Part shown: positions 1,889 to 62,300 of the stretch, in pieces
Layout: every line of letters starts with the position of its first letter
How positions within the stretch are numbered: the stretch's first letter is position 1
Assembly: GCA_016192985.1 (NCBI GenBank)
Contig: JACPTC010000017.1
Location: 65,766 to 129,765 of the forward strand
DNA length: 64,000 bases
From: Candidatus Woesearchaeota archaeon
GTDB taxonomy: Archaea; Nanobdellota; Nanobdellia; Woesearchaeales; GW2011-AR4
Direction: 5' to 3'
Made by a program: the position numbers and the translations under genes
The notes under the pieces: model-generated
Databases searched by the model: none
The model's input: the letters and a program-made list of their open reading frames with translations, nothing else
What the model was told of the DNA's origin: nothing

Positions 1889-4267
1889 TCATACAATCCT
1901 GAAATTCGGCAGCGGAACAATAAATCTGCCGCCTTTTTCCCTCCATTCTTTTTCTCTTTCAATAAACTCCTTTAAGAAGGCATAGGGTAGCACTAGGAAA
2001 TAATCTGCTTTTTTCCTTGCTTCTTCTTCAGACATTATCGGAATCATTGTGCCTATTGTACACTTATTCCACTTTTCAGGGCTTTTGTCAGCAGCTCCCT
2101 CAATAAGCTCATTTGTAAGCCCGTAATACTGAAGAATGGTATTCCCCTTTGTTGATGCACCATACACATAAACCTTTTTGCCTTTCTTGACTTCTTGCCT
2201 AATAAATTCCACACACCTCTTTTTATTTTCCTCAATTCTTCTAAAAAATGCCTCGTAGTCCTCTTTTGTGAATTTTTCATCAAACAAAATGCTCCCTTTA
2301 TTGTAATGCCTCGCATATAAGCGGTAGGAACCGCCATTAACATCATTCTCCTCTATCTTAAAAATTTCCAAGCCATTTTTCTCAAAAAGGTATTTAAGAG
2401 ACTCAATGGAATAATACTCAAGATGCTCATGGCAATTATGCACTATGGCGTTTGATACAAGATAAGTTTCATCTTCGGTTTCAATGTTGTAAACCAGATT
2501 GTCATATTTTTTAAAATTAACACTTTTTACTGGAGCTAAAATATAGTTATTCTTATAGATAACATGGCAATTTTCATTACCTTTGTGTTCATAACCAAAT
2601 ATTTGCCCCAATACTTTTGATGTACCTCGTAATTGCCAAGAATCTTTTGATATTACTTCTCCACTTCTTATCTTTCTTGGATAAGGTTTCACATAGCTTA
2701 TGCCAAGCATTCCACCCAAAGATGCGGTTAGGAGTTGAACCTGTAACGCAAGAGTTTTAGATGAGGTGTGGAAATGCACCTTGTTTCCTTTGATGTAACC
2801 GTCACCATCAAATAATCCACGTAAGAAGGCTATTTTAATCTCTTCTGGCGAAAACATAATAAAATCTGGAACATGCTTGTTAATAGCCCCTTTTCCCACC
2901 AATTTAGGAAGAGCACGCGCTAAGGCAGCACAAACAACACGGACTTCAATAGAATTTCTGTCATTATAAGAAATAATGCTTGTTTTGTATTCCAGAGTTT
3001 TGAATATGTAACTTATTCTTTTTAATAGATTAGTTTCCTTTTTGTTTATAGTAAAACAAACATATGGGTTGTTGACTTTACCACCTATATGCCCTTCTGC
3101 TACATATAATCCAAGTAACCATGCAGTATCATTATTTATAGGTAGCGATGACAAACCACTTCTATAGCCACGACTATTTATTTGATTGAATTCTGTCAAG
3201 TCTATTTTATCCAAAAATTTGTTATGTATCAGTTTTGGGATAACAACAAAATCTGCTCTTCTAATTTCTTTTGCTGGAACCCACTCTAATTTGTAGTTAT
3301 CTAGTTTTGTTTTTAATTGCATACAATCATGTCTAAACCATTCTTTTTTAACAATTTTAATAGGGTGTTCAGGCGTTACCTCAATAGCTTCCAAATACAT
3401 TGGTTTAATTTTGACAATATCACCTTTAAAATGACGACTAATTGTATTTCTAATTTCCACTAATGTTCCACCATTTCCAATAGCGTAATTGCCTTTGGCT
3501 AATTTACTAATTGGTTTATTATCGCCTAAAATTATAGTGTCTGGTTTGACGCATATATTCCCAACATCGTTTTTTTCCAGCATATTCTTAAGGCACATGA
3601 GTTGAGCAACGAAAATGCCGTCTTCAGCCATTGCCTTAGCAGAGTCAGCAACAAACTGGTTTGGGTCTTCCATGTCATAAAACATTCCAATAGCGGTTAT
3701 TGCCTTTGCTTTCCCTGTGCCTAATTTTTTGTACGCATCATAGCTCCAAAAATCATGTATAATCAAATCACAATTCTGCCTGAGCTCGTTTATGAGGTTG
3801 TCAGCAGGCTCGCATCCTATTTTTATAATTCCTTTTGGATAAGATTTCAACAATGTCCCGTCATTAGCGCCAATATCCAAAACTATATCCCCTTCTTTCA
3901 GATTTGCCATTTTTGAGACAGTTTCGGTTATTTCGCGCAACGCTCTTTTCATTGTTTCCGTAAATCCTGAATGGTACCAGTAAAATTTGGAATAAAGCAG
4001 TTCCTGGGGAGCTGTGTGCCTCAATTGCAAAAGCGAACAATCTTCACAAAGAACCAATTCCAGCGGAGCTTTCATATGCTTGGAATGATCTTCCATTTTT
4101 ATAAAGTTGCTTACATACAAATTGCCCAAGGAGAAAATTGAAATAATATTGCTGGAATAGCATAATCTACAGGCTTTTATCATTGTGTAAGGCATCTGCT
4201 CCTGGTTGCTGTGAACAGCGGACAATGGAATTGTTGCCATTTTATTAATCATTAACAGGAAAACCAC
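1889..4267 (-). CDS. NDP-hexose C-methyltransferase (TylCIII-like) interrupted by an intein
   Basis: N-terminal Zn-ribbon CRLCYSS...CEDCS, class I MTase motif VLDIGANDGT, and a C-terminal NDP-hexose C-methyltransferase (TylCIII)-like domain. The mature host is 419 aa after removing the 373-aa intein. Likely real start is M25 at 4195. Confidence 0.75.
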   Translation of the reverse strand: MVFLLMINKMATIPLSAVHSNQEQMPYTMIKACRLCYSSNIISIFSLGNLYVSNFIKMEDHSKHMKAPLELVLCEDCSLLQLRHTAPQELLYSKFYWYHSGFTETMKRALREITETVSKMANLKEGDIVLDIGANDGTLLKSYPKGIIKIGCEPADNLINELRQNCDLIIHDFWSYDAYKKLGTGKAKAITAIGMFYDMEDPNQFVADSAKAMAEDGIFVAQLMCLKNMLEKNDVGNICVKPDTIILGDNKPISKLAKGNYAIGNGGTLVEIRNTISRHFKGDIVKIKPMYLEAIEVTPEHPIKIVKKEWFRHDCMQLKTKLDNYKLEWVPAKEIRRADFVVIPKLIHNKFLDKIDLTEFNQINSRGYRSGLSSLPINNDTAWLLGLYVAEGHIGGKVNNPYVCFTINKKETNLLKRISYIFKTLEYKTSIISYNDRNSIEVRVVCAALARALPKLVGKGAINKHVPDFIMFSPEEIKIAFLRGLFDGDGYIKGNKVHFHTSSKTLALQVQLLTASLGGMLGISYVKPYPRKIRSGEVISKDSWQLRGTSKVLGQIFGYEHKGNENCHVIYKNNYILAPVKSVNFKKYDNLVYNIETEDETYLVSNAIVHNCHEHLEYYSIESLKYLFEKNGLEIFKIEENDVNGGSYRLYARHYNKGSILFDEKFTKEDYEAFFRRIEENKKRCVEFIRQEVKKGKKVYVYGASTKGNTILQYYGLTNELIEGAADKSPEKWNKCTIGTMIPIMSEEEARKKADYFLVLPYAFLKEFIEREKEWREKGGRFIVPLPNFRIV
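2435..3553 (-). mobile_element. Intein with LAGLIDADG homing-endonuclease domain in the C-methyltransferase
   Basis: Starts with Cys (...VGNI|CVKPDTIILG), block B TPEHP, LAGLIDADG motifs LLGLYVAEGHIGG and LRGLFDGDGYI, ends ...AIVHN followed by +1 Cys (CHEHLEYYS). Host flanks rejoin into a conserved NI-HEH motif. Confidence 0.8.
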
Positions 4268-19779: not shown

Positions 19780-20829
19780 GTGGACTTGCAAAGCGTCGTA
19801 GGTTTAGAAAAGATTTTGAGCTCTACAGGTGCGCCTACGAGAATTATTCTAGGAAATGATGTTGTTTATGCTAACCCTGCTTTTCTCAGATTATTGGGGA
19901 TTGAAGAAGCTCATGCGCTCGGACCATGGAGGCATAATTTAGTTGCTGAGGATGTGCCCGGAGCCGTTGCAGGAATGGAGCTTATCATGTCCGGTAAGGA
20001 ATCTCATGCAGAATATGTGTATAGGATGGCTGATGCAAGCGGAAGAACAAAATATTTTAAAGTTTTTGCCTCTGAAGTGGCTTATGACAACCAGCTTGCT
20101 GTTATGGAAACTCTTTTTGATGTTACAGAATATGCACATGCAGCAGAAAGACAACTTGCGGCAATTGCGCATGAGCTGCGTACGCCTTTAAATATTGTAA
20201 GGCTAACCGCATCTGTATTGGAAAGGATTGACCCAAGCGACCCAAAGTTTATGAAACTTCTGAATCGCATAGCTCCCAATGCAGAACGAATGGCAGAAAC
20301 AATTGAAACTCTTATGGCTTTGGCACGCGCTGAACACGATATTAACAAAGAGCACGTTAATTTGACAAAAATGGCTTATATGACTATGGAGCGCCTTATG
20401 CAGCAAGATCCAAAGCGAAATGTGCAATACTCTATCCAAGATGGAGTTGAAGCAAGTGGCGACAAAAGTTTGCTAGGCGTAGTTTTAACGAACTTGCTGG
20501 GAAACGCTTGGAAATACACAAGCAGAATAACTGATGGGCCAGCCTTAATAGAGTTTGGCTGTCGTCCATACAATGGTAATGACACAAGTCATAGTGGAGA
20601 CTGGGCATATTTTGTTCGTGACAATGGCGCTGGATTTGATCCGGCTACTGCTCAAAACTTATTTGGTTTTGGTCAACGCCTGCATTCTGAGCAACAATTT
20701 AAAGGAAACGGAATCGGGCTTAATACGGTAAAAAAAATAATAGAGTGCCACGGCGGCAAAATATGGGCTGAAGGCGCTGTTGGCAAAGGCGCGACTTTCT
20801 ACTTTACACTGCCTTTAGGTCAATCTTAA
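19780..20829 (+). CDS. Sensor histidine kinase (PAS-like N-terminus, HisKA, HATPase_c)
   Basis: H-box IAHELRTPLN, N-box LLGNAWKYT, G1 DNGAGFD, G2 GNGIGLNTVKKIIECHGG. GTG start. GC content is visibly above the local background. Confidence 0.8.
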   Translation: MDLQSVVGLEKILSSTGAPTRIILGNDVVYANPAFLRLLGIEEAHALGPWRHNLVAEDVPGAVAGMELIMSGKESHAEYVYRMADASGRTKYFKVFASEVAYDNQLAVMETLFDVTEYAHAAERQLAAIAHELRTPLNIVRLTASVLERIDPSDPKFMKLLNRIAPNAERMAETIETLMALARAEHDINKEHVNLTKMAYMTMERLMQQDPKRNVQYSIQDGVEASGDKSLLGVVLTNLLGNAWKYTSRITDGPALIEFGCRPYNGNDTSHSGDWAYFVRDNGAGFDPATAQNLFGFGQRLHSEQQFKGNGIGLNTVKKIIECHGGKIWAEGAVGKGATFYFTLPLGQS

Positions 20830-20956
20830 TAAACTCAAAACCATTTGACAGAGAACAGCTTGTGTTATACTATCCTATTATTTGTCAGTAGCAGCATAAT
20901 CCATTTTCTGATTATAAAAAGATTTAAAAGATGGCTTAGTCGTATGAGATAAAGAA

Positions 20957-22003
20957 ATGACAAAAAGCATATTAAAACCACTAAAACAAGCGGGATGGAA
21001 TGGTAGCCAGAGAATGATATTCATAGCGCTGAATGGTATTGGCAATACAATCATTCTGACTCCTGCCTTGGTAAATCTCAAGAAGAATTGGCCTAAATCT
21101 TATGTCACAGTATTGACTTTGAGAGATTCTGTGGGAATTATCTCAAGCAATCCTTATATAGACGATGTTATTGTTTACCCATCAAAAAAATCATTATTAT
21201 CAAGAATCGTGTTTCTATTAAAACTAAGAAGGCAAAAATATGATATAAGCTTTTATCCGTATCCAAATGTCAATATAATGAGTGCATTATTTGCATTTAT
21301 CATAGGAGCAAAATGCAGGGTAAATTTTTATTACAGATTTCTGGGCAAGTGGAGCGGGATTTTTGACTCTATCAGCGTTCCGGTCGACCTTGAAAAGCAC
21401 GATATAGAAAAAAATCTGGATTTGCTTAGGGCATTAAACCTGAAAATATACTCTAAAAACCCCTGTATCTACATTAAAAAAGAAGATACGAAATATGTTG
21501 ACGGGCTTCTTAAAAATAATGTAAAAAGAAAAGACATATTGATTGGCATGCATGTTGGCTCAAAAGAAGGAATGAGAATATGGCATACGGAAAATTTCGC
21601 TTCTTTAGCTAAGAAGCTTTCAGCGGATAAAAGAGTTAAAATATTGCTTGTCGGCACAGATATAGAAATGAACCTCATCAAAGATTTTGGCGAATTTAAA
21701 AAGCAGAATATCATCAACCTTATAAACAAGACGACAATACCTCAAACAACTGCATTAATCGGAAGATGCAAGCTTTTTGTTACAACAGACTCTGGACCTA
21801 TGCACATGGCAGTTGCTGCTGGAACAAGGGTAATTGCCGTTTATCTTGGCCCGCATATAAAAAGAACCGCGCCATACGGCAAAAAGCACATAGTATTTTT
21901 GACAAACAAGGCTACTCATAAGGAAGACAAAAACAAAAACCACATTTACGTTGACAAAGTGACTCCAGACATGGTTTTTAAAAAAATTAGGAAGATACTG
22001 TGA
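20957..22003 (+). CDS. GT9-family glycosyltransferase (heptosyltransferase-like)
   Basis: GT9 signature KLFVTTDSGPMHMAVAAGTRVIAVYLGP; HVGSKEGMRIWHTENF. Confidence 0.7.
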   Translation: MTKSILKPLKQAGWNGSQRMIFIALNGIGNTIILTPALVNLKKNWPKSYVTVLTLRDSVGIISSNPYIDDVIVYPSKKSLLSRIVFLLKLRRQKYDISFYPYPNVNIMSALFAFIIGAKCRVNFYYRFLGKWSGIFDSISVPVDLEKHDIEKNLDLLRALNLKIYSKNPCIYIKKEDTKYVDGLLKNNVKRKDILIGMHVGSKEGMRIWHTENFASLAKKLSADKRVKILLVGTDIEMNLIKDFGEFKKQNIINLINKTTIPQTTALIGRCKLFVTTDSGPMHMAVAAGTRVIAVYLGPHIKRTAPYGKKHIVFLTNKATHKEDKNKNHIYVDKVTPDMVFKKIRKIL

Positions 22004-22016
22004 TTCCTTATAAAAA

Positions 22017-23144
22017 TCACTGAATGAAACATCTATAAAATTTTTCAGCCACCTTGCCTATTGTAAAATTATTCAAAATATACCTTCTGCCCTTATCTGC
22101 CAATTTTTCAGCATATTTTTTGTTATCCAGCAGCATTTTGATGCCATTTGCCATATCATTAACGTCAAATTTTTTTGTAACAATTCCATATTCCTTGTTT
22201 TTGACCGCAAACTCAACACCGCCGCAATCCATAACCAACACTGGAATTCTGCATGCAAGAGCCTCATTCACAGCAGGAGTAATCTCTTGTGTATTTGCGA
22301 GAACAAAAACAGAGGACATATTATATATGACAGCAAGCTCAGCGTGGCTCTTTGCCCCTAAAAACTTTATCTTATCTCCTATCCCCAAACCTTCAGATAA
22401 CTGAACAAGTTCGTCTTTATAATAACCCTCGCCAACAATCCATAACTCAATGTCATAGCCCCTATCTATAATCTCTTTTGCTGCCCTGATAATCATATCG
22501 TGACCTTTTAATTTATAAAGCGCACCAACCGATAAAACAACAGGTCTTGAGTTTTTTTTAACATTCATGGGCTTGAAGCAATGTACATCAGTGGGATGCC
22601 CAATTACCACACTTTTTTTGGAACCTTTCTGCAGCAAACCAAGGTTTATGCATCTTTTTTCAGCTTCAGGGTTTGCAAATAAAAGGTATCTTGCGTAATT
22701 GCAGGCTTTTTCAGCAAAATACAACGCTATTGGTTTTGTATACTTAAATAAGAAAAAACCCTCAATGGTCTGGGAAGTCCTGTATATCAGCCTGATTTTG
22801 TATTTTTTAGCTGCCAAATATGATTGATAGGCAAACCAATAAAATTCAGGATTACTTGATTCTATGGCATCATAACCCTTTAATTTGCCAATCAAATCAA
22901 AATAATAAAACCTTGGAAAACCCAAAAGCAGGAATATTTTTTCGATTACCGTTCTATAATCCAAGCTATTTATCTTTTCAACTTTAAAGTTTTTGTAAGA
23001 AAAATTGTTTTTTGCATCGGTAAATATTGTAACTTCTATCCTATATTTTTTTATCAAATATTCATAAACTTTCAGTAAATTTTGCAATGAGGACTTTATG
23101 TCGGGCTGTGTAGGAATTACAACAGCCACTCTCAATTTTTTCAT
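22017..23144 (-). CDS. GT4-family glycosyltransferase (Glycos_transf_1)
   Basis: C-terminal E...PVLVMDCGGVEFAV motif region and LGIGDKIKFLG. Start set at MKKLRVAVVIPT to avoid overlap with the wecB-like gene. Confidence 0.7.
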   Translation of the reverse strand: MKKLRVAVVIPTQPDIKSSLQNLLKVYEYLIKKYRIEVTIFTDAKNNFSYKNFKVEKINSLDYRTVIEKIFLLLGFPRFYYFDLIGKLKGYDAIESSNPEFYWFAYQSYLAAKKYKIRLIYRTSQTIEGFFLFKYTKPIALYFAEKACNYARYLLFANPEAEKRCINLGLLQKGSKKSVVIGHPTDVHCFKPMNVKKNSRPVVLSVGALYKLKGHDMIIRAAKEIIDRGYDIELWIVGEGYYKDELVQLSEGLGIGDKIKFLGAKSHAELAVIYNMSSVFVLANTQEITPAVNEALACRIPVLVMDCGGVEFAVKNKEYGIVTKKFDVNDMANGIKMLLDNKKYAEKLADKGRRYILNNFTIGKVAEKFYRCFIQ

Positions 23145-23196
23145 ATTATTCCTCAATAGATAACTATTTATATACCTTTTTGTTTTTTCAGACGAT

Positions 23197-24309
23197 ATGT
23201 TGAAAATAATAAATGTAGTGGGAACAAGACCTAACTTCATTAAGATAGCGCCTCTAATAAAAGAGATGAAGAAGCATAAGGATATAAACCCTATTTTGAT
23301 ACACACTGGCCAACACTATGACGCTTCTATGTCAAAAGCCTTTTTTGAGGATTTAAATATACCAAAACCCAATCTGAACCTCGAAGTTGGCTCAGCTTCT
23401 GACGCCGCTCAAACTGCCAAGATAATGCTAAAATTTGAGAAAGCGCTGTTGAAGGAGAAGCCTGATTTGGTTTTAGTTGTTGGCGATGTAAATTCTACCT
23501 TTGCAGCAGCTATCACAGCAAAAAAATGCGGAATTAAAGTTGCGCATGTTGAATCTGGCCTAAGGAGTTTTGACATGAAAATGCCTGAAGAAATAAACAG
23601 GATTCTTACAGACCACGTTTCAGACTTTTTGTTTACAACAGAAAAAAGCGCAAATCAAAATTTAATTAACGAAGGCATAGACAAGAAAAAGATATTATAT
23701 GTTGGAAATGTGATGATAGATACGCTAATAAGCCACAGGGAAAAGGCGAAAAAATCAAGAATATTGCAGAAGTTAGGTTTATACAAGAAGGAATATGCCG
23801 TCCTGACACTGCATAGGCCGAGCAATGTCGATGATAACGAATCGTTTAAATCTATTTTCAATATTTTAAATAAAGTCCAGAGAAAAATCAAGATTGTATT
23901 CCCTATACACCCAAGAACACTAAAAAATTTGAAGAAACACTGCTTATTGGAAAGTCTCAAAAGTAAAAAGAGCATAGTGCTGACAGAGCCGCTTGGCTAC
24001 CTTGACTTCTTAAGCTTGATGATAAATTCAAAATTTGTTATCACGGATTCTGGCGGAATACAGGAAGAAACTACAGTCTTAAATGTACCTTGCGTGACCA
24101 TCAGGAATACCACAGAAAGGCCAATAACCACAACAGAAGGCACTAATGTTCTTGTTAGTACAGATGAAGATAAGATACTCAATTCTTGCAATCATATTAT
24201 AAAGGGAGTAAATGTAAAAAGCAAAATCCCTAAACTGTGGGATGGCAAGGCTGCAGACAGGATAATCAACATCCTATTGGCAAATTTGGGACGCAATCAT
24301 CAAACATAA
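23197..24309 (+). CDS. UDP-N-acetylglucosamine 2-epimerase (non-hydrolysing, WecB-like)
   Basis: MLKIINVVGTRPNFIKIAPL, HTGQHYD, DSGGIQEE. Confidence 0.8.
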   Translation: MLKIINVVGTRPNFIKIAPLIKEMKKHKDINPILIHTGQHYDASMSKAFFEDLNIPKPNLNLEVGSASDAAQTAKIMLKFEKALLKEKPDLVLVVGDVNSTFAAAITAKKCGIKVAHVESGLRSFDMKMPEEINRILTDHVSDFLFTTEKSANQNLINEGIDKKKILYVGNVMIDTLISHREKAKKSRILQKLGLYKKEYAVLTLHRPSNVDDNESFKSIFNILNKVQRKIKIVFPIHPRTLKNLKKHCLLESLKSKKSIVLTEPLGYLDFLSLMINSKFVITDSGGIQEETTVLNVPCVTIRNTTERPITTTEGTNVLVSTDEDKILNSCNHIIKGVNVKSKIPKLWDGKAADRIINILLANLGRNHQT

Positions 24310-24319
24310 AGTATATATA

Positions 24320-25777
24320 ATGATGTCTGCTCTAAATGATTTTATGTCTATCCAATCAAGAATATTGAAGAATATAAGTTTTGTAAGCGCTGGCGAGCTA
24401 ATATCAAATTTTTTATCATATTTTCTAATCATTTTTATTGCCCGACTCCTCGGATCTGAAGGACTGGGAATTTACTCATTTGCATTCGCATTTGTTGGGC
24501 TGTTTGCGGTCTTCAATGATTTTGGACTTTCAACTTTTTTCGTTAGAGAAGTTTCAAAGAAAAGGGAAGATATAGAAAAATATTTTGGCAATTACGCCGC
24601 AATGAGGCTCATCTTGTGCATTATTTCGGCTGTATTGCCTTTGGTATTCATTTTATTCTTAAAGAGGTCGTCGTATGTTGTTGGTGTTGTGTATCTGGCT
24701 GCCGTAGCACTTTTCTTCCAAAATTACTCTTATATTCCGAGAAATACGTTTCTGGCTTATCAGGTTATGCAGTATGATTCTGCCATCAAGATAATCGAAA
24801 GAATTGTTGCATTTACGTTAGGTTTGTACGTGCTCTGGGCAGGCTACGGATTGCTGGCGTTTCTTATAGTGCTTGCTATATCCAATTTTATAGCGTATAT
24901 AATGTCTGTGATATTTCTAAGAAAGATAAATATAAAGTTTAGATTCAAAATAGACTATAAAATATGGAAATCAATGCTCAAAACTTCTTGGCCATTTTGG
25001 CTTTCAATGATTTTTTTACAAATTTATTTTCAGCTAGACACAGTGATGCTTTCTTTTATGAAAGGATACGAGGCTACTGGATTGTATAATGCAGCTTACA
25101 AGTTGATATTTGTTGCTGATAAAATACCTTTGATAATTGGTCTTGTATTATTTCCTGTTATGTCTGAGCTATACGCTAGCATGTCAAAGGGACTATTAAA
25201 AAAAACACTTCAAAAAGGCTCACATTTAATGATAATTTTGAGTCTTCCATTGATTTCAGGCACAGTTATTTTGGCAGACCGGATAATATTATTTATCTAT
25301 AAATCCGATTTTAAAGGCTCTATTATTGCCCTTCAAATACTGATATGGACTACCTTTTTCATGTTTCTGAGTTATCTTATCGGCTGGTTCCTTAATGCAA
25401 CTAACAGGCAGAAGATTTTTACATATACTACGGGCTTGTGTCTCGCTTTTAATGTAATACTAAATTTTATGCTTATACCCTCCTTTGGTTACACTGGAGC
25501 TTCGATAGCGACGCTTGTAACCGCCGCATTGAATTTTTTATTATTATACCATTTTAGTATCAAATCCGGATATTTTGTAAATATTTTCAAATTAATTTTA
25601 AAACCCCTAATTGCCGCTATACTGATGGGAGCATTGATAATCTTTTTTGGGAAAGATATTCATCTTCTCGCATTGATACCTGTATCAGCTCTTTTTTATT
25701 TTTTATTGCTTATTCTTATGAAAGATGTCAAAAAAACGGACTTTGAGGATTTCCTTTCAAAGAAAAGTTTTAAATAA
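24320..25777 (+). CDS. Wzx-like oligosaccharide flippase (MOP/polysaccharide biosynthesis protein family)
   Basis: 485 aa, about 12-14 TM helices, polysacc_synt-like organisation. Confidence 0.6.
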   Translation: MMSALNDFMSIQSRILKNISFVSAGELISNFLSYFLIIFIARLLGSEGLGIYSFAFAFVGLFAVFNDFGLSTFFVREVSKKREDIEKYFGNYAAMRLILCIISAVLPLVFILFLKRSSYVVGVVYLAAVALFFQNYSYIPRNTFLAYQVMQYDSAIKIIERIVAFTLGLYVLWAGYGLLAFLIVLAISNFIAYIMSVIFLRKINIKFRFKIDYKIWKSMLKTSWPFWLSMIFLQIYFQLDTVMLSFMKGYEATGLYNAAYKLIFVADKIPLIIGLVLFPVMSELYASMSKGLLKKTLQKGSHLMIILSLPLISGTVILADRIILFIYKSDFKGSIIALQILIWTTFFMFLSYLIGWFLNATNRQKIFTYTTGLCLAFNVILNFMLIPSFGYTGASIATLVTAALNFLLLYHFSIKSGYFVNIFKLILKPLIAAILMGALIIFFGKDIHLLALIPVSALFYFLLLILMKDVKKTDFEDFLSKKSFK

Positions 25778-25799
25778 GCCCCAAAAATCCGCAGATAAA

Positions 25800-28439
25800 A
25801 TGCCTACAATACTCGGCTTTCATAGCCATAATCTTACAGGCGCTGCGCTCGTCAGTGACGGAAGGATTATTTCTGCAGTCAATGAGGAAAGACTAGACCG
25901 AATTAAAAACAGCCCTGCATTTCCTGAGAAATCTATAAAAGAAGTTTTAAGAGAAGGAGAGATGAAAAATGAGGAAGTAGACTCTATTGCGATAGGTGAC
26001 CTTATTTACAAATTTCCCGCCATTAGTGAATACATCAAGAGATTATTTGTAACTTCCCCAAAATACCACTACAATATAATTGGAAGGATTAAGCATATAT
26101 GGAATATGCAATCAAAATGTTCCAAGGCAAATTTTAGATACTCAAACAAAAATTTTCCTGGCAAAAATATCAATAATGTAGAGCATCATGTCGCGCATGC
26201 CGCTTCTGCCCATTTTACTAGCGGCAATGATAAAAACTTGATAGTGACTATTGACGGGTGGGGCGATAAACTGTCAAATGGCGCATACATCGGCAATAAA
26301 GCTAGCATTAATAGATTATACAGCTCTTATGATTTGGACTCATTGGGCTACTTTTATAGCAGAATCACTGTTGCTTTGGGCTTCAAGCCCCACAGGCACG
26401 AAGGAAAGATAACAGGACTCGCTGCTTATGGAAAGCCAAGCAGCGATTTAACTAAATTAATGGACAAAATGGGATATTTTGATAGAAGGAACATGAGATT
26501 CAAGTTCAATCTCGGTGAAGATTATTTCCCAACGCTGGATGTCAAGGAAAAGCTTATACATAAACTATCAAAATTTAAGAAAGAGGATGTTGCTGCAGCA
26601 GCCCAAAAATTTCTTGAGGACACAACAAGGCAGTATGTAACAGCTTTAATAGATAAAGAAGGCAGCCATCACCTAGTATGTGCTGGAGGAATCTTCGCTA
26701 ATGTTAAAATGAACCAGATAATCAAGGATTTGCCAGGAGTTAAAAGCATTTTTGTTCATCCAAACATGGGGGACGAAGGCTTGTGCCTTGGATGCGCCCT
26801 AAAAACCTATAATGATAAGTATGGGTATATGAATGTTAGATTAAAAGATGTTTATTTTGGTCCAGAATTTACAGATCAAGAAATTAAAGAAGAGCTTGAC
26901 AAGTTCAATCTGGAATATGAGCACTTAAAAGACATTGAGTACCAAGCTGCAGAACTGCTGTCCAAAGGCAAGGTGGTTGCCCGCTTCAATGGCAGAATGG
27001 AGTATGGGCCAAGAGCTTTAGGCAACAGAAGCATTCTTTATCAGACACAAGACAAAAGTGTAAATGACTGGCTTAACAAGCATTTGCATAGGTGTTATGA
27101 TGATAAAACAGAAATTTTGACTAGTGAAGGTTGGAAGCTTATTAAGGACATTTCAGATGGCGAAGTTGTAGCAACGCTCAATCCAAAAAAAGACAGCCTC
27201 GAGTTTCAAAAAATCACCAAAAAAATTTCATATGATTATGACGGGCAAATGTTTAAGATTAAAAACAAGAGGATAGATCTGGTTATAACTCCTAATCATA
27301 ATCTATGGGTTAAAAAAAAGCATGGATCATCCTTTTCATTTATAAAAGTGGATGATGTTGCAAAAATAAGAACATATCATTATCAAAAAAAAGGAGGAGT
27401 TGATTGGAAAGGTAAAAGACGCGAAAGCTTCAGATTAGGAAGAAAAAAAATCCTTATGGATATTTGGTTGGAATTTTTAGGATATTACCTTTCCGAAGGC
27501 AGTGTTTATTATGATGGATATGGTCATTATAGGGTTTCCATTGCGCAATCAAAGAATTCTCGGCATTTTATCTCAATAGAAAGATGCTTAAAAAAACTTC
27601 CATTTAAGTTTTTTTATTCAAAAAAAGAATTTATTGCCAATAATAAAATGCTTTTTGATTATCTAAAAAAGCTTGGCAAATCTGGAAATAAGTATATCGC
27701 TAGAGAGTTTATGTCTTTAGAGAAGAAACAGCTTATGATTTTATTTAAAGCTTTAATTGACGGAGACGGCAACATAAGGGGAAACGGCTATAGATACGCT
27801 ACTACCAGCAGATTGCTTGCTGATAATGTTCAAGAGCTAGCGTTTAAATTAGGTTATAGTGCTTATTTATCCATGCAGAAGAAAAGTCTTAATCCAAAGC
27901 ATAATCAGTTGTATATGGTTAAGATAGGAAGAAGTCCTGTGGCTACTGTAAGAGCTAATCAAATAACTAAAATTCCATATAAGGGGAATGTATATTGTGT
28001 TACCGTGCCTAATCATATTATCTATGTAAGGCGCAACGGCAAGAGCGTTTTTTCAGGAAACACAGAATTTATGCCTTTCGCGCCAGTAACCATAGCAAAA
28101 TATGCAGATAAATGCTACCAAGGCATAAGGGGGGCGGAATACACAGCAAAATTTATGACTATCACATTTGACTGCACAGACTGGATGAAAGAGGCTTGTC
28201 CAGGCGTTGTGCATATCGATGGAACTGCAAGACCGCAGTTGATTGAAGAATCCGATAATCCAAGCTATTTCAGGATAGTTGATGAATACAGGAAAATAAC
28301 AAATGTACCGTGCCTGATAAACACAAGCTTTAACATGCATGAAGAGCCTATTGTATGCACACCAAATGATGCAATAAGGGCATTTAAGGACGGCAATTTA
28401 GACTATTTGGCTATAGGAAATTATCTTGCAAGAAATTGA
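25800..28439 (+). CDS. Carbamoyltransferase (NodU/CmcH family) interrupted by an intein
   Basis: N-terminal MPTILGFHSHNLTGAALVSDGRII...EERLDRIKN and the conserved ...LNKHLHR|TEFMPFAPV motif split by a 323-aa insert. Mature host is about 557 aa. Start chosen at the MPTIL ATG at 25800. Confidence 0.8.
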   Translation: MPTILGFHSHNLTGAALVSDGRIISAVNEERLDRIKNSPAFPEKSIKEVLREGEMKNEEVDSIAIGDLIYKFPAISEYIKRLFVTSPKYHYNIIGRIKHIWNMQSKCSKANFRYSNKNFPGKNINNVEHHVAHAASAHFTSGNDKNLIVTIDGWGDKLSNGAYIGNKASINRLYSSYDLDSLGYFYSRITVALGFKPHRHEGKITGLAAYGKPSSDLTKLMDKMGYFDRRNMRFKFNLGEDYFPTLDVKEKLIHKLSKFKKEDVAAAAQKFLEDTTRQYVTALIDKEGSHHLVCAGGIFANVKMNQIIKDLPGVKSIFVHPNMGDEGLCLGCALKTYNDKYGYMNVRLKDVYFGPEFTDQEIKEELDKFNLEYEHLKDIEYQAAELLSKGKVVARFNGRMEYGPRALGNRSILYQTQDKSVNDWLNKHLHRCYDDKTEILTSEGWKLIKDISDGEVVATLNPKKDSLEFQKITKKISYDYDGQMFKIKNKRIDLVITPNHNLWVKKKHGSSFSFIKVDDVAKIRTYHYQKKGGVDWKGKRRESFRLGRKKILMDIWLEFLGYYLSEGSVYYDGYGHYRVSIAQSKNSRHFISIERCLKKLPFKFFYSKKEFIANNKMLFDYLKKLGKSGNKYIAREFMSLEKKQLMILFKALIDGDGNIRGNGYRYATTSRLLADNVQELAFKLGYSAYLSMQKKSLNPKHNQLYMVKIGRSPVATVRANQITKIPYKGNVYCVTVPNHIIYVRRNGKSVFSGNTEFMPFAPVTIAKYADKCYQGIRGAEYTAKFMTITFDCTDWMKEACPGVVHIDGTARPQLIEESDNPSYFRIVDEYRKITNVPCLINTSFNMHEEPIVCTPNDAIRAFKDGNLDYLAIGNYLARN
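27093..28061 (+). mobile_element. Intein with LAGLIDADG homing-endonuclease domain in the carbamoyltransferase
   Basis: Cys1 (R|CYDDKTEILTSEGW), block B TPNHN, LAGLIDADG motifs FLGYYLSEGSV and LIDGDGNI, block F VYCVTVPNHIIYV, terminal ...SVFSGN followed by +1 Thr. Penultimate residue is Gly rather than His. Confidence 0.75.
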
Positions 28440-28472
28440 TAAAGGTATCATATACATGGAGGAAAAGCTTGA

Positions 28473-30932
28473 TTAATCTCTTGATAAAAAAAATATCTTA
28501 GCAAAATAAAAAGATATAGCCATCAATGTCAAAATAGTTATCAATTTGCCTATTCTGTATGATAGAGGATCAAATATAAATTCTATTTCGTGATGGCCAT
28601 TGTTCAGGTATACAGACCTGAAGATATAATTGGCTCTGTAAATCCTGGCTTCCTTTCCGTTGTCGAAAGCTTTCCATCCAGGATACCATATTTCGCTCAT
28701 GACTAAAAAGCCGGGCTTGTCGGTGTCAACTTCAACTTTGATTTTATTGGGAGAATAGAATGTGACATCTGCTTCTTTAAATGCATTTCCTGTCTGCTTT
28801 AGTTTCACACTTTCTTCCAAAATTACATTCTTTCTTGGGTCAAAATCCCCGCTTTTTAAAATCTCAATGATCTTGCTCCTTTCAGCAACTATATAATTGC
28901 CTACAATGAAGGCTCTTGGCACGAATTCCAGATTTTCATAAACATAATTGGTTTGGAAGCTTTCCAGCTCCAGCATCTTATGTTCCAATTTTTTGTCTGA
29001 ATAGGTCTTCTTGTCGTTGCTGTCATAAACAATTGAAGTCGAGTTGTAAAGAAGTATGTAGTTCTGGTCTTTCAGCTTTTGGGTTGTTATAACATACTTT
29101 ACATTCAGCAAATCAAGCATCTTCTTGTGCCTTATCTCCTTGAAAGGTATTGTCGGGGAAGGAAAAAATGGGAGGCTTGCCATTTCGCTGGCATATTCCC
29201 TGTAATAATACAGCACCATGCCATCATACCCGTTTATGCTTTCAAGATCGTATCTGACAGCAATTTCCTGCGGAATTGATTTTGCCATGTCAAGAAATCT
29301 AAAATAGCCTTTGTCTTTGCTTAAAAAAGAGGGAATCTCATTTTGTATGTAGACATAGTCGCTGCCTTTTAAGTCAATAAAAGGCATGCTAAAGAGCCAT
29401 AAGTCGGCAATTACCAATGCGCAAATTCCTAACTTAAAGTAATCTACCTTAACCTGCTTTTTATACCACAAAAAGAGCAGTAAAGTGCCTATGATAGATA
29501 TACATATGAACAATATTAAATCATGCCGAATTTCACGCAAATTGCTGTCAACCTTCTCTTTATAATACTGCAAAGGTTGAAGCCCCAGCTCTAGTTGGCT
29601 TTTTGAATATTTTGATTCAAGTATGCTGTTTCCTATAGCCATTATCCCATTTTTAAATAAAATAATTCCCGAAAAAATTAATATAGAAAATATTATTGAT
29701 GCCGTTAATATGGCTATCATCCTCCTCAGAAATAATTTGTCCTGCTTGGATTTAATATAGATTAAAAAATCTGCCCCAAAACCAGCTATCAAGGGCATGG
29801 AGAAGAAGTAAAAGAATAGCATCCTTGCCGGAGCCCTTAGGTATCTAAATAATGGAATATAATTATAGAAATAATGATAGAGGGGATTGAACCTTCCAAA
29901 TGATAAGAAAATAGCCACTAGGCAAATAGCAAGAAAAAAGAATGCAAAAACATTTTTTCTTTTAAATGCAAGTAACGATAATATAAGGGGGAAAATACCA
30001 AGATAGATTATTAATTGCCAATATGGAAAGAGGCTCCAGTAGTTGCTGTGAAGAAGCGTTCCAAAGAAGTTAGGACTTACAGACGTTATAAGATGATATG
30101 GCGGAAATGATCCAAGAGTAGAGAAGTCATAGCTCAAACCCCTTGAGCGGGTATCATACTTTAGTATTTCTATTGACGGCAGCAATTGAACTGCAGAAAG
30201 AAAAACTGAAATTAGTAACGCCAAAAAATATATTAAAGAAATGTCCTTTACAGATTTAAAATTTTTTTCATGCTTAATTACTACTAAAATTCTGAATATA
30301 AAATAAACAAATAAGAATAAGTAAGTGTAGATAAGCTTCTGCGTGTGTGCCCCTAAAATAATAAGAGATAAGGATATACCAGTTAAAATTCCATAAACAT
30401 CTTTCCTGCTCTTTATCCCGCATTCAAAAAAGTATAGTGTCAAAGGAAAGAATACCATCATTGGCAATTCATTAGTCAGTCCGGCAAAAATGAACATCAC
30501 AAAGCCGCCATTGAATATGTAAATTACAGATGCTATAAAAGAGCTGAATCTGCTTAAGCCAATCTTTGCTGCATATAAATAAAAAAAAGCTCCAGCAAGG
30601 AAAAAATGGGATATATAGAGAATATTGAACAATAGCGCCATATCTGAAAAAAACATAAACACTGAATTAGGTGGATAAAAAATCTTGGAGAAATGATGCG
30701 CCAAAAAAGGCATGCCTCCAAATGTGTAGGGATTCCAGAGAGGTATTTGACTGAAATTCTGAAAACTGTCGTGTATTAATTCTTTCCAGAGAAGATCTGC
30801 CGCAACTAAGTCGGAAAATGGAGAGTAAATTATATTCATGGGTGATAAAATTGCCTTCCAGAAAAATGCCAACACCAAAAATATTAAAAATAATGAGTAC
30901 TTGTTCTTTTTGAAAAATATTATTAGTCCCAT
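28473..30932 (-). CDS. YfhO-like polytopic membrane protein (putative membrane glycosyltransferase)
   Basis: 819 aa; about 13 N-terminal TM helices, large extracytoplasmic domain, single C-terminal TM (LITILTLMAISFYFAKIFF), as in the bacterial YfhO family. Confidence 0.4.
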   Translation of the reverse strand: MGLIIFFKKNKYSLFLIFLVLAFFWKAILSPMNIIYSPFSDLVAADLLWKELIHDSFQNFSQIPLWNPYTFGGMPFLAHHFSKIFYPPNSVFMFFSDMALLFNILYISHFFLAGAFFYLYAAKIGLSRFSSFIASVIYIFNGGFVMFIFAGLTNELPMMVFFPLTLYFFECGIKSRKDVYGILTGISLSLIILGAHTQKLIYTYLFLFVYFIFRILVVIKHEKNFKSVKDISLIYFLALLISVFLSAVQLLPSIEILKYDTRSRGLSYDFSTLGSFPPYHLITSVSPNFFGTLLHSNYWSLFPYWQLIIYLGIFPLILSLLAFKRKNVFAFFFLAICLVAIFLSFGRFNPLYHYFYNYIPLFRYLRAPARMLFFYFFSMPLIAGFGADFLIYIKSKQDKLFLRRMIAILTASIIFSILIFSGIILFKNGIMAIGNSILESKYSKSQLELGLQPLQYYKEKVDSNLREIRHDLILFICISIIGTLLLFLWYKKQVKVDYFKLGICALVIADLWLFSMPFIDLKGSDYVYIQNEIPSFLSKDKGYFRFLDMAKSIPQEIAVRYDLESINGYDGMVLYYYREYASEMASLPFFPSPTIPFKEIRHKKMLDLLNVKYVITTQKLKDQNYILLYNSTSIVYDSNDKKTYSDKKLEHKMLELESFQTNYVYENLEFVPRAFIVGNYIVAERSKIIEILKSGDFDPRKNVILEESVKLKQTGNAFKEADVTFYSPNKIKVEVDTDKPGFLVMSEIWYPGWKAFDNGKEARIYRANYIFRSVYLNNGHHEIEFIFDPLSYRIGKLITILTLMAISFYFAKIFFLSRD

Positions 30933-53696: not shown

Positions 53697-54794
53697 CTAT
53701 ACCTCCAATTTGGTCCAAATAATTTTCTGGCCAATTTTGTTTGATTTTGTTATTAAACCTTTCTTATATAAATCTTTTAATGGCATGTTTACATTACTTT
53801 TTCTAACGCCTAATTTGAAAATTAATTCTTCTGTAGAAAGATTTTCCGATGAAAGCAAGTCAATAATTTCTTCCTTTGTTTCGTTATTTTTTCTTCTTAC
53901 ACCATTATAATTATTTCTAATTTCAATTAATTTTGATAGTTTATTTAACTTCGTGGGATGATTAAATCCAATTACTTGAAAATATTTTTCAATCTCTTTT
54001 GGTTTTATTGTTAAATAAAAATATGATTCTGATTTTTCAGCTATTTGAACATCGCTAAAATCTAATTTTCCTGTTAGTAATTCTTTTATAGATAATAAAA
54101 TATTTTTATTAGTTGAATAAATACTTATCTTATGATTCAAATCTACATTTCCTTCGTCATCAGCAAAAGCCCTGATTAGAGCTACGGAAAATTCTATTGG
54201 CAAATCTTTAATTCTTTCCGGGATTATGGCATTTCGTGTTTTGAAATCAATATTATAAAAGAATTTAATTAAGTCCGCAATAACTCTTGGGGACCTTAAA
54301 TCGTAACAGCCTGAATTTCTATAATAGATTTTTTCATCTACATCACCAAAAACAGATGAAATTAGTTTTTGGAAATTATCTATTAAGTCTTTATTTGAAT
54401 TTGTGTATATAGGAATATTATTCTTGTTGACGCTTCCATCTCCAATTAAATGTGCAATCAGGGCAAATAACTCTGGACTTTCGATTATCGGTAGTTTAGG
54501 ATTTTTAACCGCTAAGCTCGAATTAGGGCCTTTATAGGTGATAACATTGCTTTCAATTTCATTCCAATCAAGACCTCTTTTATTAACTATTTTTTTAATA
54601 TGGACTAAAGGTATGAATAGATTTAATTTTTTCCAAAAATGAATTACTTGAGGAGATACAGACAAGAAATTTGCTAATTTTTTTAACGAGCCAAAATAGT
54701 TTATACTATCATCTATAAATTTATCATTATCGCTAAGTAATATCCTAATCCTATCTGCTGGAAAATCTTTCAAATGAAATTTTTTAATTACCAT
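53697..54794 (-). CDS. Free-standing LAGLIDADG homing-endonuclease-like protein with flanking HTH domains
   Basis: Two LAGLIDADG motifs (LIAHLIGDGSV, LIRAFADDEGNV), an N-terminal HTH-like region and a C-terminal winged-helix-like region. Start codon directly abuts the P0 stop (TAAATG) and its stop lies 3 nt before the P1 start. Confidence 0.7.
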   Translation of the reverse strand: MVIKKFHLKDFPADRIRILLSDNDKFIDDSINYFGSLKKLANFLSVSPQVIHFWKKLNLFIPLVHIKKIVNKRGLDWNEIESNVITYKGPNSSLAVKNPKLPIIESPELFALIAHLIGDGSVNKNNIPIYTNSNKDLIDNFQKLISSVFGDVDEKIYYRNSGCYDLRSPRVIADLIKFFYNIDFKTRNAIIPERIKDLPIEFSVALIRAFADDEGNVDLNHKISIYSTNKNILLSIKELLTGKLDFSDVQIAEKSESYFYLTIKPKEIEKYFQVIGFNHPTKLNKLSKLIEIRNNYNGVRRKNNETKEEIIDLLSSENLSTEELIFKLGVRKSNVNMPLKDLYKKGLITKSNKIGQKIIWTKLEV

Positions 54795-60530: not shown

Positions 60531-62300
60531 TTGAAAATGCTGCGCCAATTAATAATAACAGTAATGGGAAATGTTGATAGCGGCAAAACTCAACTGCTTG
60601 ACACAATTAGAGACACCTCTATTGTCGAGTCAGAGCCCGGCAGAATAACCCAGTGCATTGGATGCTCATTTATAACTGCGGATGTAATAAAAAAAATTTG
60701 CGGCAATCTGCTTCAAAAAACAAAGCTAGAGATAAAAATTCCTGGCTTTATTATATTGGACACGCCTGGCCATGCTGCTTTCACAAATCTCAGAAAAAGG
60801 GGCGGCAATCTTGCTGATATTGCAATTTTAGTGATTGATATTAATGAAGGTGTTAAGCTGCAGACGGAAGAGTGTATAGATATACTAAGGCAGTATAAAA
60901 CCCCTTTTGTCATTGCACTAAACAAAATTGATTTGCTGCCCGGATGGGTGTCAAAGTCTGGTGTTAATTTGCTGGACAACATTCAATCCCAGAGAGAGAA
61001 TGTTCTGATTTTTGTTGAAAAAAAACTTTATGAGGTTGTCGGCAGGATTAGCCAGTTTGGCTTTAATGCAGAAAGGTTTGACAGGATTGAGGATTATGCA
61101 AAACAAATTCCAATAATACCAATATCTGCAAAAACCACTGAAGGCTTGCCGGAGATTTTAATGGTATTGGCAGGTTTGTCGCAAAAATTTTTGGAAGAAA
61201 GCTTAAGAGTTGATGTTAAAGGCAGTGCAAAAGGAACAATACTTGATGTCAAAGAAGAAAGAGGCCTAGGAACAACAGTTGATGCCATAATCTATGATGG
61301 CTCCTTAATGCAGAATGATATGATTGTTATAGGCTCATTAAAAGAGCCAATCGTGACAAAAATCAAAGCTTTGTTTGAGCCTTTGCCGCTTGCAGAAATG
61401 CGTGATAAAAAGGCAAAGTTCAAGCCAGTAAAAGAGGTAACTGCAGCAACCGGCGTTAAAATTGCCGCTCCTGAGCTGGATAATGTTGTCGCAGGAATGC
61501 CATTGAGGAGCTGCCTGCCAAATGAGACTGAAAAGGTAAAGGAAGAAATACAAAAGGAAGTGGAGGAAGTTATAATAGAAACTGACAAGCAGGGAATTGT
61601 AATAAAGGCAGATTCGCTTGGCAGTTTGGAAGCGCTTGTTAAAATATTAAAAGAGAAGAATATTGAAATAAAAAAAGCCAGCATTGGCAATATTTCAAAA
61701 AAGGACCTTTCAGATGCAGAAACCAATTATGAAAAGTATCCGCTCCAGAGTTCAGTTCTTGGATTTAATGTAGGAATAATGCCGGAAGTTAGGGTTCCGT
61801 CTAATGTCAAAGTATTGACTAATGAGGTCATCTACAAACTCATAGAAGATTTTGAAAAATGGCAACAGGAAGAAAGGAAGATAATTGAGTCTAAAGAGAT
61901 AGAATTTTTAAACATGCCCTGCAAAATTCAGATAATGAAAGGTTATGTCTTTAGGCAGAGCAATCCCGCTATTGTTGGAGTAGAGGTGCTTACAGGTACT
62001 CTAAAAACAGGAGTTCCGCTAATGAAGAAAGACGGGGCAGCAATAACTGAGGTAAAAAGCATTCAGCAGGAGCAGGAAAATCTTGAGAAAGCTGAAAAAG
62101 GCAAACAAGTCGCTGTTTCATTGAGCAATGTCACAATAGGCAGGCAATTGCAGGAAGAGGATGTGCTATATTCAGCAATTCCAGAAGAGCATTTCAGGAA
62201 ATTCAAGGAGCTCAAGAAGCTTTTGAGCAATGATGAAATAGAAGTGCTCAAGGAAATAGCTGAGATAATGAGGAAAAGCAATCCAATGTGGGGAATTTGA
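60531..62300 (+). CDS. infB: Translation initiation factor aIF5B (IF2 homologue)
   Basis: G1 VMGNVDSGKT, DTPGH, NKID G-domain motifs and beta-barrel domains; 589 aa, no intein insertion. Confidence 0.85.
   Translation: MKMLRQLIITVMGNVDSGKTQLLDTIRDTSIVESEPGRITQCIGCSFITADVIKKICGNLLQKTKLEIKIPGFIILDTPGHAAFTNLRKRGGNLADIAILVIDINEGVKLQTEECIDILRQYKTPFVIALNKIDLLPGWVSKSGVNLLDNIQSQRENVLIFVEKKLYEVVGRISQFGFNAERFDRIEDYAKQIPIIPISAKTTEGLPEILMVLAGLSQKFLEESLRVDVKGSAKGTILDVKEERGLGTTVDAIIYDGSLMQNDMIVIGSLKEPIVTKIKALFEPLPLAEMRDKKAKFKPVKEVTAATGVKIAAPELDNVVAGMPLRSCLPNETEKVKEEIQKEVEEVIIETDKQGIVIKADSLGSLEALVKILKEKNIEIKKASIGNISKKDLSDAETNYEKYPLQSSVLGFNVGIMPEVRVPSNVKVLTNEVIYKLIEDFEKWQQEERKIIESKEIEFLNMPCKIQIMKGYVFRQSNPAIVGVEVLTGTLKTGVPLMKKDGAAITEVKSIQQEQENLEKAEKGKQVAVSLSNVTIGRQLQEEDVLYSAIPEEHFRKFKELKKLLSNDEIEVLKEIAEIMRKSNPMWGI

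Follow-up and report, generated by a model that had tools for sequence, protein, structure and literature searches.

A predicted Gly-Asn LAGLIDADG intein in the carbamoyltransferase gene of a Woesearchaeota archaeon

Positions 65,766 to 129,765 of contig JACPTC010000017.1 (assembly GCA_016192985.1, Candidatus Woesearchaeota archaeon), a stretch of 64,000 nt referred to here as the window, contain a carbamoyltransferase gene whose reading frame is interrupted within a conserved motif by an insert of 323 amino acids (aa). The questions raised by this locus are what the insert is and whether the glycine at its penultimate position, where most inteins have histidine, sets it apart. With a probability of about 0.9, the insert is a bifunctional class-1 intein of a large clade of LAGLIDADG inteins ending in Gly-Asn (the Gly-Asn clade) that would have invaded the YrdC-like domain of a TobZ/NodU/CmcH-type O-carbamoyltransferase and would use standard splicing and homing, the chemistry being read from conserved residues and precedent. 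The identification as an intein is strongly supported because the sequence, family, structure-prediction, and comparative evidence agree. The coordinates are listed in Table 1.

The mechanical open reading frame (ORF) on the + strand extends from 25725 to 28439 and has 904 codons, the length given in an earlier note made from this DNA by a model. The frame is open as described, but the true start is probably Met26 (ATG at 25800), which gives 879 aa, because P0121, a database protein 99% identical, was called at 879 aa, orthologues without an intein have 556-558 aa (581 - 25), and a start at 25725 would give an overlap of 53 nt with the upstream flippase gene, which ends at 25777. The ATG at 25800 lies 22 nt past the flippase stop. 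An exact-sequence database look-up of the 904-aa product returned no record because the databases begin the gene at Met26. Translation confirmed the in-frame insert between LNKHLHR and TEFMPFAPV: its 969 nt are free of stops and encode CYDDKTEILT...VRRNGKSVFSGN, preceded by ...NDWLNKHLHR and followed by TEFMPFAPVTIA... (TEFMPFAPV). The boundary is unambiguous, with no residues repeated across the two junctions, and the reverse strand of the insert is full of stops. The GC content is 0.326 in the insert, 0.385 in the N-extein, and 0.399 in the C-extein.

The host protein has the class III (TobZ/NodU/CmcH/NovN/GdmN-type) ATP-dependent carbamoyltransferase architecture, with a Kae1-like N-terminal and a YrdC-like C-terminal domain. 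Pfam Carbam_trans_N matched residues 29-359 (E value 3e-37), and Carbam_trans_C (E value 1e-51) matched in two stretches with the intein matches falling in the gap between them. Against NCBIfam NF041651, the NodU equivalog with a cut-off of 1000, the host scored 102.9 bits; since this is far under the cut-off, the enzyme is classified from its sequence as a family member and not as NodU proper. The description of the host as a NodU/CmcH-type carbamoyltransferase with a split conserved motif therefore held, but the native motif of this subfamily is R-T-E-F-M-P-F-A-P and not R-E-x-F-R-P-F-A-P as the earlier note had it, so the +1 Thr is the host's own conserved residue. The YrdC-like domain forms carbamoyl-AMP out of ATP and carbamoyl phosphate (PMC9633730), and a KxR/SxN catalytic tetrad has been defined in TsaC/Sua5 (PMC10321239). 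In the host, SxN is present as N-T-S-F-N, 89 residues downstream of the -1 Arg; this Arg is invariant in the subfamily, and the Lys two residues ahead of it is replaced by Leu (N-K-x-L-x-R). By homology to the TsaC/Sua5 tetrad and from the downstream SxN, the -1 Arg is probably the catalytic Arg, with a one-position ambiguity around KxR, where HMMER placed the local gap differently against 7xb6 and against TobZ. The unspliced precursor would be expected to be inactive.

For alignments and the homologue search, the insert was removed in silico, giving a spliced product of 581 aa. This product aligned end to end with the solved carbamoyltransferases 7xb6 (E value 1e-68), NovN, TobZ, and GdmN, with no indel at the splice point and a sole local gap of one residue located 2-4 residues upstream of the junction. 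Three of the 120 best homologues of the spliced protein, P0121, P0128 (from a Woesearchaeota metagenome-assembled genome [MAG]), and P0135, have an insert of 323-333 aa at the identical R^T point (carets mark splice junctions), and these proteins were recovered by the extein search after being missed in a word-indexed homologue search with the insert, whose list is thus not exhaustive. The presence of these three and the co-divergence of the insert with its host would be expected of a lineage-specific accessory domain of the carbamoyltransferase family that is not mobile, and the earlier note had itself pointed to a conserved family domain in relatives as the outcome that would speak against an intein. 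Such a domain can practically be dismissed: the other 117 of the 120 have no insert and carry R-TEFMPFAP uninterrupted, with exactly 27 residues from GPRALG to PFAP, among them orthologues at 70-79% identity that keep the flippase-carbamoyltransferase gene order. In one of these (P0122, 79% identity, locus L001), the flippase gene is followed by a carbamoyltransferase gene with an empty DNA site, AACGACTGGCTGAATAAAAGGCTGCGCAGA^ACGGAGTTTATGCCTTTCGCTCCTGTTACA. Dozens of unrelated proteins contain relatives of the insert, in every case with the boundaries Cys ... Gly-Asn^Ser/Cys/Thr, and the predicted fold of the insert is that of an intein with a LAGLIDADG endonuclease.

Table 1. Features of the carbamoyltransferase gene and of the second intein in the window. 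Residues of motifs are numbered within the 323-aa intein, and conservation counts refer to 98 aligned family sequences, as they do throughout unless stated.
Feature	Position	Strand	Remarks
Carbamoyltransferase precursor gene	25800..28439	+	879 codons from the probable start Met26; stop codon included
N-extein	25800..27092	+	Kae1-like domain and first part of the YrdC-like domain; ends ...NDWLNKHLHR; aligns to 7xb6, NovN, TobZ, GdmN
Intein, 323 aa (predicted)	27093..28061	+	HINT splicing domain with nested LAGLIDADG homing endonuclease; Cys1 ... Gly322-Asn323
Splicing block A (CYDDKTEILTSEG)	27093..27131	+	Cys1 nucleophile; C 97/98, T6 98/98, T10 98/98, G13 98/98
Splicing block B (LVITPNHNLWV)	27279..27311	+	Thr66 and His69; TPNH is residues 66-69; T 87/98, H 98/98
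First LAGLIDADG motif (WLEFLGYYLSEGS)	27465..27503	+	Residues 125-137; catalytic acidic Glu135; E 78 and D 17 of 98; G136 98/98
Second LAGLIDADG motif (LFKALIDGDGNI)	27741..27776	+	Residues 217-228; catalytic Asp225; D 97/98, G226 97/98
Splicing block F (VYCVTVPNHIIYV)	27990..28028	+	Cys302 where Asp is usual, His308; VYCVTVPNH is residues 300-308; C 81/98 (D 11), H 69/98
Splicing block G (RRNGKSVFSGN)	28029..28061	+	Gly322 and Asn323; R313 94/98, R314 97/98, N315 88/98, G316 88/98, G322 95/98, N323 95/98
C-extein	28062..28436	+	Remainder of the YrdC-like domain; begins at +1 Thr (TEFMPFAPV...); holds NTSFN (SxN) motif
Second intein, 373 aa (...GNI^CVKPDT...NAIVHN^CHEH)	2435-3553	-	Within ORF 1889-4267 (-), sugar C-methyltransferase (Methyltransf_13/23/14)

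All of the motifs quoted in the earlier note (Cys1, TPNH, two LAGLIDADG motifs, VYCVTVPNH, and SGN^T) are present, the insert ending in S-G-N followed by Thr at +1. Among 97 relatives, the C-terminal residue is Asn in 94, Gln in 2, and Asp in 1, and the +1 residue is Ser in 56, Cys in 24, and Thr in 17, a nucleophile in 97/97. Pfam LAGLIDADG_3 matched residues 218-281 with 33.8 bits, over its gathering score of 22.5. An AlphaFold2 model of the intein built from 91 family sequences had a pLDDT of 95.5 and a pTM of 0.93, and in a Foldseek search against PDB, the top 16 matches to it were all inteins, with TliVMA and PhoVMA best (E value 2e-19 to 4e-16, TM score 0.65-0.68), followed by PI-SceI, PI-TkoII, and PI-PfuI, while its central domain matched I-DmoI (target TM score about 0.62-0.66, E value 1e-6). 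In the model, the Asn-Gly of block G forms a turn ahead of the last strand, which is two residues longer than in the canonical ...N-G-x-x-V-H-N block. By its sequence, the insert classifies as a class-1 intein, with Cys1, T-x-x-H, Asn followed by a nucleophilic +1 residue, a HINT fold, and precise insertion, the penultimate His being absent; the earlier designation as an intein with LAGLIDADG motifs is thus upheld, as a class-1 type with a LAGLIDADG endonuclease, by the blocks, family conservation, fold, and empty-site homologues. A class-3 reading was considered because of the block-F Cys and was rejected. Class-3 inteins have no nucleophile at position 1 and carry a Trp-Cys-Thr triplet at block B:12, F:4, and G:5 (PMC5050341, PMC4031507); here, Cys1 is present and nearly invariant in the family, and the residue ahead of Gly-Asn is Ser/Cys and not Thr.

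Solved homing inteins (TliVMA and PhoVMA, 7qsu, 7qss, 7qst; PI-SceI, 1vde, 1ef0; PI-PfuI, 1dq3; PI-TkoII, 2cw7) also have a HINT domain interrupted by a two-motif LAGLIDADG endonuclease, and they share with the window intein Cys1, the block B T-x-x-H, the C-terminal Asn, and the +1 nucleophile. They match the model with a Foldseek probability of 1.0 and TM scores of 0.60-0.68, but at a sequence identity of only 11-19%. The window intein is more compact (323 aa vs 360-540 aa) and differs from them in having Gly for the penultimate His, Cys for the block-F Asp, and a longer block G (R-R-N-G-K-x-x-F-S-G-N). A parallel in chemistry is the mycobacteriophage Bethlehem gp51 (RDF) intein, which is class-1, has a penultimate Gly, carries an endonuclease, and in its native form splices completely (PMC5050341); this and the other penultimate-Gly inteins differ from the window intein in host and lineage and were compared by description only. 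According to the citing passages of PMC5050341 and PMC4031507, the other penultimate-Gly inteins include archaeal ones (Chen, Benner & Perler 2000) and that of Chlamydomonas ClpP (Wang & Liu 1997). Reversion of Gly to His gave slower splicing in RDF and, by citation in these passages, faster splicing in some others. Since the effects of reversion differ among inteins, that of G322H in the window intein is not predictable. The penultimate-Gly case in Chen, Benner & Perler 2000 is reportedly the M. jannaschii RNA polymerase A' subunit intein.

Relatives of the insert were numerous. The word-indexed search returned >200 proteins (best E value 4e-67), and an exhaustive search of 1.84 billion cluster representatives (50%-identity clusters) gave 12,571 matches at E <= 1e-3, 7,848 at <= 1e-10, and 1,929 at <= 1e-30, with many matched proteins holding several intein copies. 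In every case, the relatives occupy their unrelated hosts as complete modules that begin with Cys and end at Asn^Ser/Cys/Thr. Their host genes include ThyX, ThyA, UDP-glucuronate decarboxylase and GDP-mannose or dTDP-glucose dehydratase-type enzymes, M23 peptidases, DNA polymerase B, RuvC, GTP cyclohydrolase I, MCM, and radical-SAM proteins. Hosts were also identified by flanking residues, which read HEAMEQQ^C...CGN^SISVAKAGI for MCM and GPR[SAG]^C...GN^CYDE[GA]KR for the dehydratase/decarboxylase family, and which likewise identify radical-SAM enzymes and carbamoyltransferases. Same-clade inteins in other hosts (Methanoculleus MCM; cyanobacterial, Pyrinomonadaceae, and DPANN decarboxylase/dehydratase-type enzymes; ThyX, ThyA, M23, and radical-SAM proteins) have 30-46% identity to the window intein along its entire 323 aa and share with it CYDxxTE[IV]LT, TPNH, WLEFLGYY[LI]SEG, GDG, VYCV.VPNH, and VRRNGK..W[CS]GN^[SCT], whereas their insertion sites and hosts are different. 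When one genome per species was scanned, two peptide patterns alone gave 455 confirmed loci, and the clade was found in the archaea Woesearchaeota, Pacearchaeota, Nanoarchaeota, Aenigmatarchaeota, Iainarchaeum, Hadesarchaea, an Asgard MAG, Methanoculleus (including the cultured M. nereidis YWC-01, L061), Methanosarcinales, and Methanomassiliicoccaceae, and in the bacteria in filamentous cyanobacteria (Microcoleus, Okeania, Coleofasciculus, Planktothrix), Pyrinomonadaceae, Omnitrophota, Acidobacteria, and others. Many of the proteins P0241-P0387 are very long and contain several Gly-Asn-clade inteins in a single chain, such as P0260 (2,602 aa, 10 matched stretches), P0263 (3,693 aa), and P0247 (1,890 aa, about 3 copies).

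The penultimate glycine had been described in the earlier note as a rare variant expected to alter the kinetics of Asn cyclisation. In most inteins, a His at this position assists Asn cyclisation, with ~5% of characterised functional inteins having another residue there (Mills, Johnson and Perler, PMC4031507), and a change of this residue altered the splicing rate in tested cases (PMC5050341). On these grounds, the Gly could be a rare special adaptation of this intein that slows or tunes Asn cyclisation and makes maturation of the carbamoyltransferase conditional, but this is quite improbable in view of the relatives. In 97 full-length relatives, the penultimate residue is Gly in 94, Ser in 3, and His in 0, and in 255 intein C-termini from the 147 best cluster representatives, it is Gly in 234 (228 ending in Gly-Asn), Ser in 2, and His in 4, whatever the host (MCM, ThyX, dehydratases, radical-SAM enzymes, or carbamoyltransferases); because it is the consensus across unrelated host genes, the Gly is inherited and not host-specific. 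In a phage intein with a penultimate Gly, moreover, the native form splices to completion, and the Gly-to-His mutant is the slow form, in which precursor accumulates (Kelley et al., PMC5050341). Among inteins tested elsewhere, reversion to His helped some and impaired others (PMC4031507). The substitution itself is therefore present, but its rarity is not borne out, and altered cyclisation kinetics are not implied for this intein because Gly is the clade consensus and penultimate-Gly inteins are known to splice. Gly322 is inherited clade chemistry with experimental precedent and does not point to unusual kinetics in this protein.

A block-F His is able to take over the role of the penultimate His (PMC5050341), and the window intein has such a residue, His308. 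Around the Gly, the clade as a whole shares one block G, V-R-R-N-G-K-x-x-[W/F]-[C/S]-G-N, in which Arg313, Arg314, Asn315, and Gly316 are present in 88-97/98. A speculative extension, rather doubtful when taken as a whole, is that the Gly-Asn clade represents a distinct, stable catalytic solution for C-terminal cleavage, in which the extended block G, with its nearly invariant Arg-Arg-Asn-Gly-Lys turn and its Trp/Phe-[Cys/Ser] pair, would act jointly with the block-F His or Cys in place of the penultimate His, that few intein lineages are as abundant as this clade among uncultivated archaea and some bacteria, and that in the carbamoyltransferase sub-clade, the insertion point moved one codon to follow the nucleophile on a jump between two enzyme subfamilies.

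The last element of this proposal concerns two adjacent insertion sites, both located where the YrdC-like domain reads K-x-R-E-x-[F/W]-R-P-F-A-P. Site a (...x-R^[T/S]-x-F-M-P-F-A-P) is occupied in the window, P0121, P0128, P0135, P0243, P0252, P0273, and L004-L008, and site b (...K-H-R-E^[S/C]-[W/F]-R-P-[F/Y]-A-P), one residue downstream relative to the PFAP anchor, in P0001, P0261, P0286, L009, L010, and L012-L018, the copies matching at about 1501-2526 in each L locus and coming from Woesearchaeota, Pacearchaeota, and Nanoarchaeota MAGs. Neighbour joining of 121 clade members, without support values, placed the site-a (7/7) and site-b (8/8) inteins in exclusive groups, which together formed an exclusive 15-member clade. 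The site-b inteins share with the window intein the host superfamily and motif, the sub-clade (as its sister group), and an origin in DPANN archaea; they differ from it in that their enzyme subfamily offers Ser or Cys as +1, in a block G of the form [VI]KR[DNG]EK..FSGN, and in sequence (about 44-52% identical). Most simply, an ancestral intein would have invaded the carbamoyltransferase motif once and then passed from one enzyme subfamily to the other, with the splice point set by the nucleophile of each. Two copies of the clade contain stops or frameshifts: the site-a copy at L011:1501-2470, disrupted near the C-terminus beside a masked run, and the MCM intein of a Methanomassiliicoccaceae MAG at L064:1501-2595. 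Both are possible decaying copies or assembly errors.

In the mechanism proposed for the window intein, translation would yield a precursor of ~879 aa with the active-site motif ...x-R^T-E-F-M-P-F-A-P interrupted. The HINT domain would fold, and Cys1, aided by Thr66 and His69 of block B, would turn the Arg(-1)-Cys1 peptide bond into a thioester, from which the N-extein would pass to the +1 Thr by transesterification. Asn323 would then cyclise to a succinimide and release the intein, and an O-to-N shift would form the native peptide bond of a 556-aa enzyme with R-TEFMPFAP intact. Most likely, His308 would fill the role of the penultimate His, and Arg313-Arg314, which hardly vary in the clade, may contribute. 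Either the excised intein or the precursor would act as a site-specific LAGLIDADG endonuclease cutting intein-free alleles at ...AGR^ACnGAnTTyATGCCTTTCGC..., and repair would copy the intein in (homing), which would explain its patchy distribution among close relatives.

Selection was assessed against the Woesearchaeota allele at L003. Synonymous sites were saturated (pS, the proportion of synonymous differences, 0.68-0.84 against this allele and 0.68-0.90 overall), and for this reason, only pN, the corresponding nonsynonymous value, and pN/pS were reported and no corrected-distance ratio. pN was 0.114 in the N-terminal splicing part, 0.116 in the endonuclease, and 0.090 in the C-terminal splicing part, compared with 0.168 in the N-extein and 0.123 in the C-extein; constraint on the intein as a whole, with its endonuclease, is no weaker than on the enzyme that it interrupts. 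Intein-bearing alleles were interspersed with intein-free ones in a neighbour-joining tree of spliced exteins without support values. This interspersion, the empty site in the 79% orthologue, the lower GC content of the intein, and the relatives in many unrelated genes would speak for mobility. An alternative, unlikely on balance yet plausible, is that splicing is active while the endonuclease is no longer functional, the intein being fixed and passed on by vertical descent only, with occasional loss by precise deletion. Intein identity closely follows extein identity (77.4 vs 74.5%; 64.7 vs 59.6%), as vertical inheritance predicts, and decay of the endonuclease after fixation is expected in the homing-cycle model (PMC1654191). 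The endonuclease nevertheless keeps both catalytic acidic residues and the LAGLIDADG glycines, its pN is as low as that of the splicing domain, which decay would not give, and alleles with and without the intein are intermingled among close relatives. The pattern fits a mobile element that has persisted for long, still functions, and has been both gained and lost, without proving recent homing.

A separate observation concerns a contig from Logan SRR12113431 (L002), which differs from the window (19800-28513) at 8 positions over 8,714 aligned bases. All 8 differences, 4 of them non-synonymous, lie in a 597-nt patch of the N-extein (26444-27040) that ends 53 nt upstream of the intein point, and no difference falls in the intein, the C-extein, or the 6.6 kb upstream. 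The patch could be a recombination or gene-conversion tract beside the homing site, or a strain-mixture assembly artefact.

Several observations weigh against the identification as a functional, mobile intein. The profile search that the earlier note had suggested succeeded for LAGLIDADG_3 but fell short for the splicing domain, Pfam PF14890 Intein_splicing scoring 32.4 bits against a gathering score of 35.8 (E value 1e-7, profile positions 3-148/155), and a search of PDB sequences with the insert as single query returned no intein, only a spurious match at an E value of 0.12. On account of these two results, the element is divergent from characterised inteins, and the near miss would be consistent with a divergent clade. 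An NCBIfam scan of the insert gave nothing useful. The block-F His is conserved in only 69/98 of the clade and is consequently not a universal substitute for the penultimate His. The extein tree, as stated, is a neighbour-joining tree that carries no support values, and the co-divergence of intein and exteins is compatible with long vertical inheritance and losses without recent homing. The sub-threshold Intein_splicing score, together with the disrupted intein C-terminus beside masked bases at L011, might suggest that the insert is a decayed, non-splicing remnant and the gene a pseudogene or the source of a permanently interrupted, inactive, or repurposed protein. This is very improbable, as the 879-codon frame is open with every catalytic position intact, the pN of the intein is as low as that of the exteins at a divergence where synonymous sites are already saturated, the full-length architecture is kept in three independent lineages, and the structure model is confident (pLDDT 95.5).

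The gene lies in a glycan assembly cluster with GT9, GT1, and GT2 glycosyltransferases, a UDP-GlcNAc 2-epimerase, a Wzx-type flippase, a YfhO-like membrane protein, methyltransferases, a DegT-type aminotransferase, and a PMT-like transferase. The report of a further intein in a glycan-tailoring gene of the same window proved correct (Table 1). Like the carbamoyltransferase intein, it is class-1 and contains LAGLIDADG motifs; unlike it, the second intein ends in the canonical ...A-I-V-H-N^C with a penultimate His. Because only its endonuclease part resembles the Gly-Asn clade profile (hidden Markov model positions 40-306, E value 6e-24), it is judged from its sequence to be a separate lineage and an independent invasion. 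Elsewhere in the window, a 365-aa ORF (53697-54794, -) has LAGLIDADG_3 at residues about 100-276 (LIAHLIGDGS, LIRAFADDEGN) and a winged-helix HTH_5/MarR-like C-terminus with no flanking splicing blocks, and looks like a free-standing LAGLIDADG protein, either a homing endonuclease or a DNA-binding derivative that has been domesticated. A 589-aa aIF5B-type translation factor (GTP_EFTU, IF-2, EFTU_D4) is encoded at 60531-62300 (+), and the closest named relatives of the window proteins are from Woesearchaeota MAGs; from these two observations, the window belongs to a DPANN-type archaeon. Bacterial-looking genes are also present, namely, a PAS/HisKA/HATPase sensor kinase (19780-20829) and a GT9 heptosyltransferase-like enzyme.

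For annotation, the gene is to be described as an 879-aa precursor maturing to a 556-aa carbamoyltransferase and not as a 904-aa fusion, a split gene, or a pseudogene. The kind of element is well known, while the host and the insertion site appear new, no paper in the literature searched linking inteins to this carbamoyltransferase family. An intein that lacks the penultimate His is best judged within the clade to which it belongs; in this one, Gly prevails in thousands of sequences and is no sign of impaired or specially regulated splicing. The clade could serve as a source of His-independent splicing scaffolds, being compact at 323 aa, confidently modelled, and of large natural diversity. 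For DPANN archaea, the finding means that inteins target glycan-tailoring enzymes and not only replication proteins.

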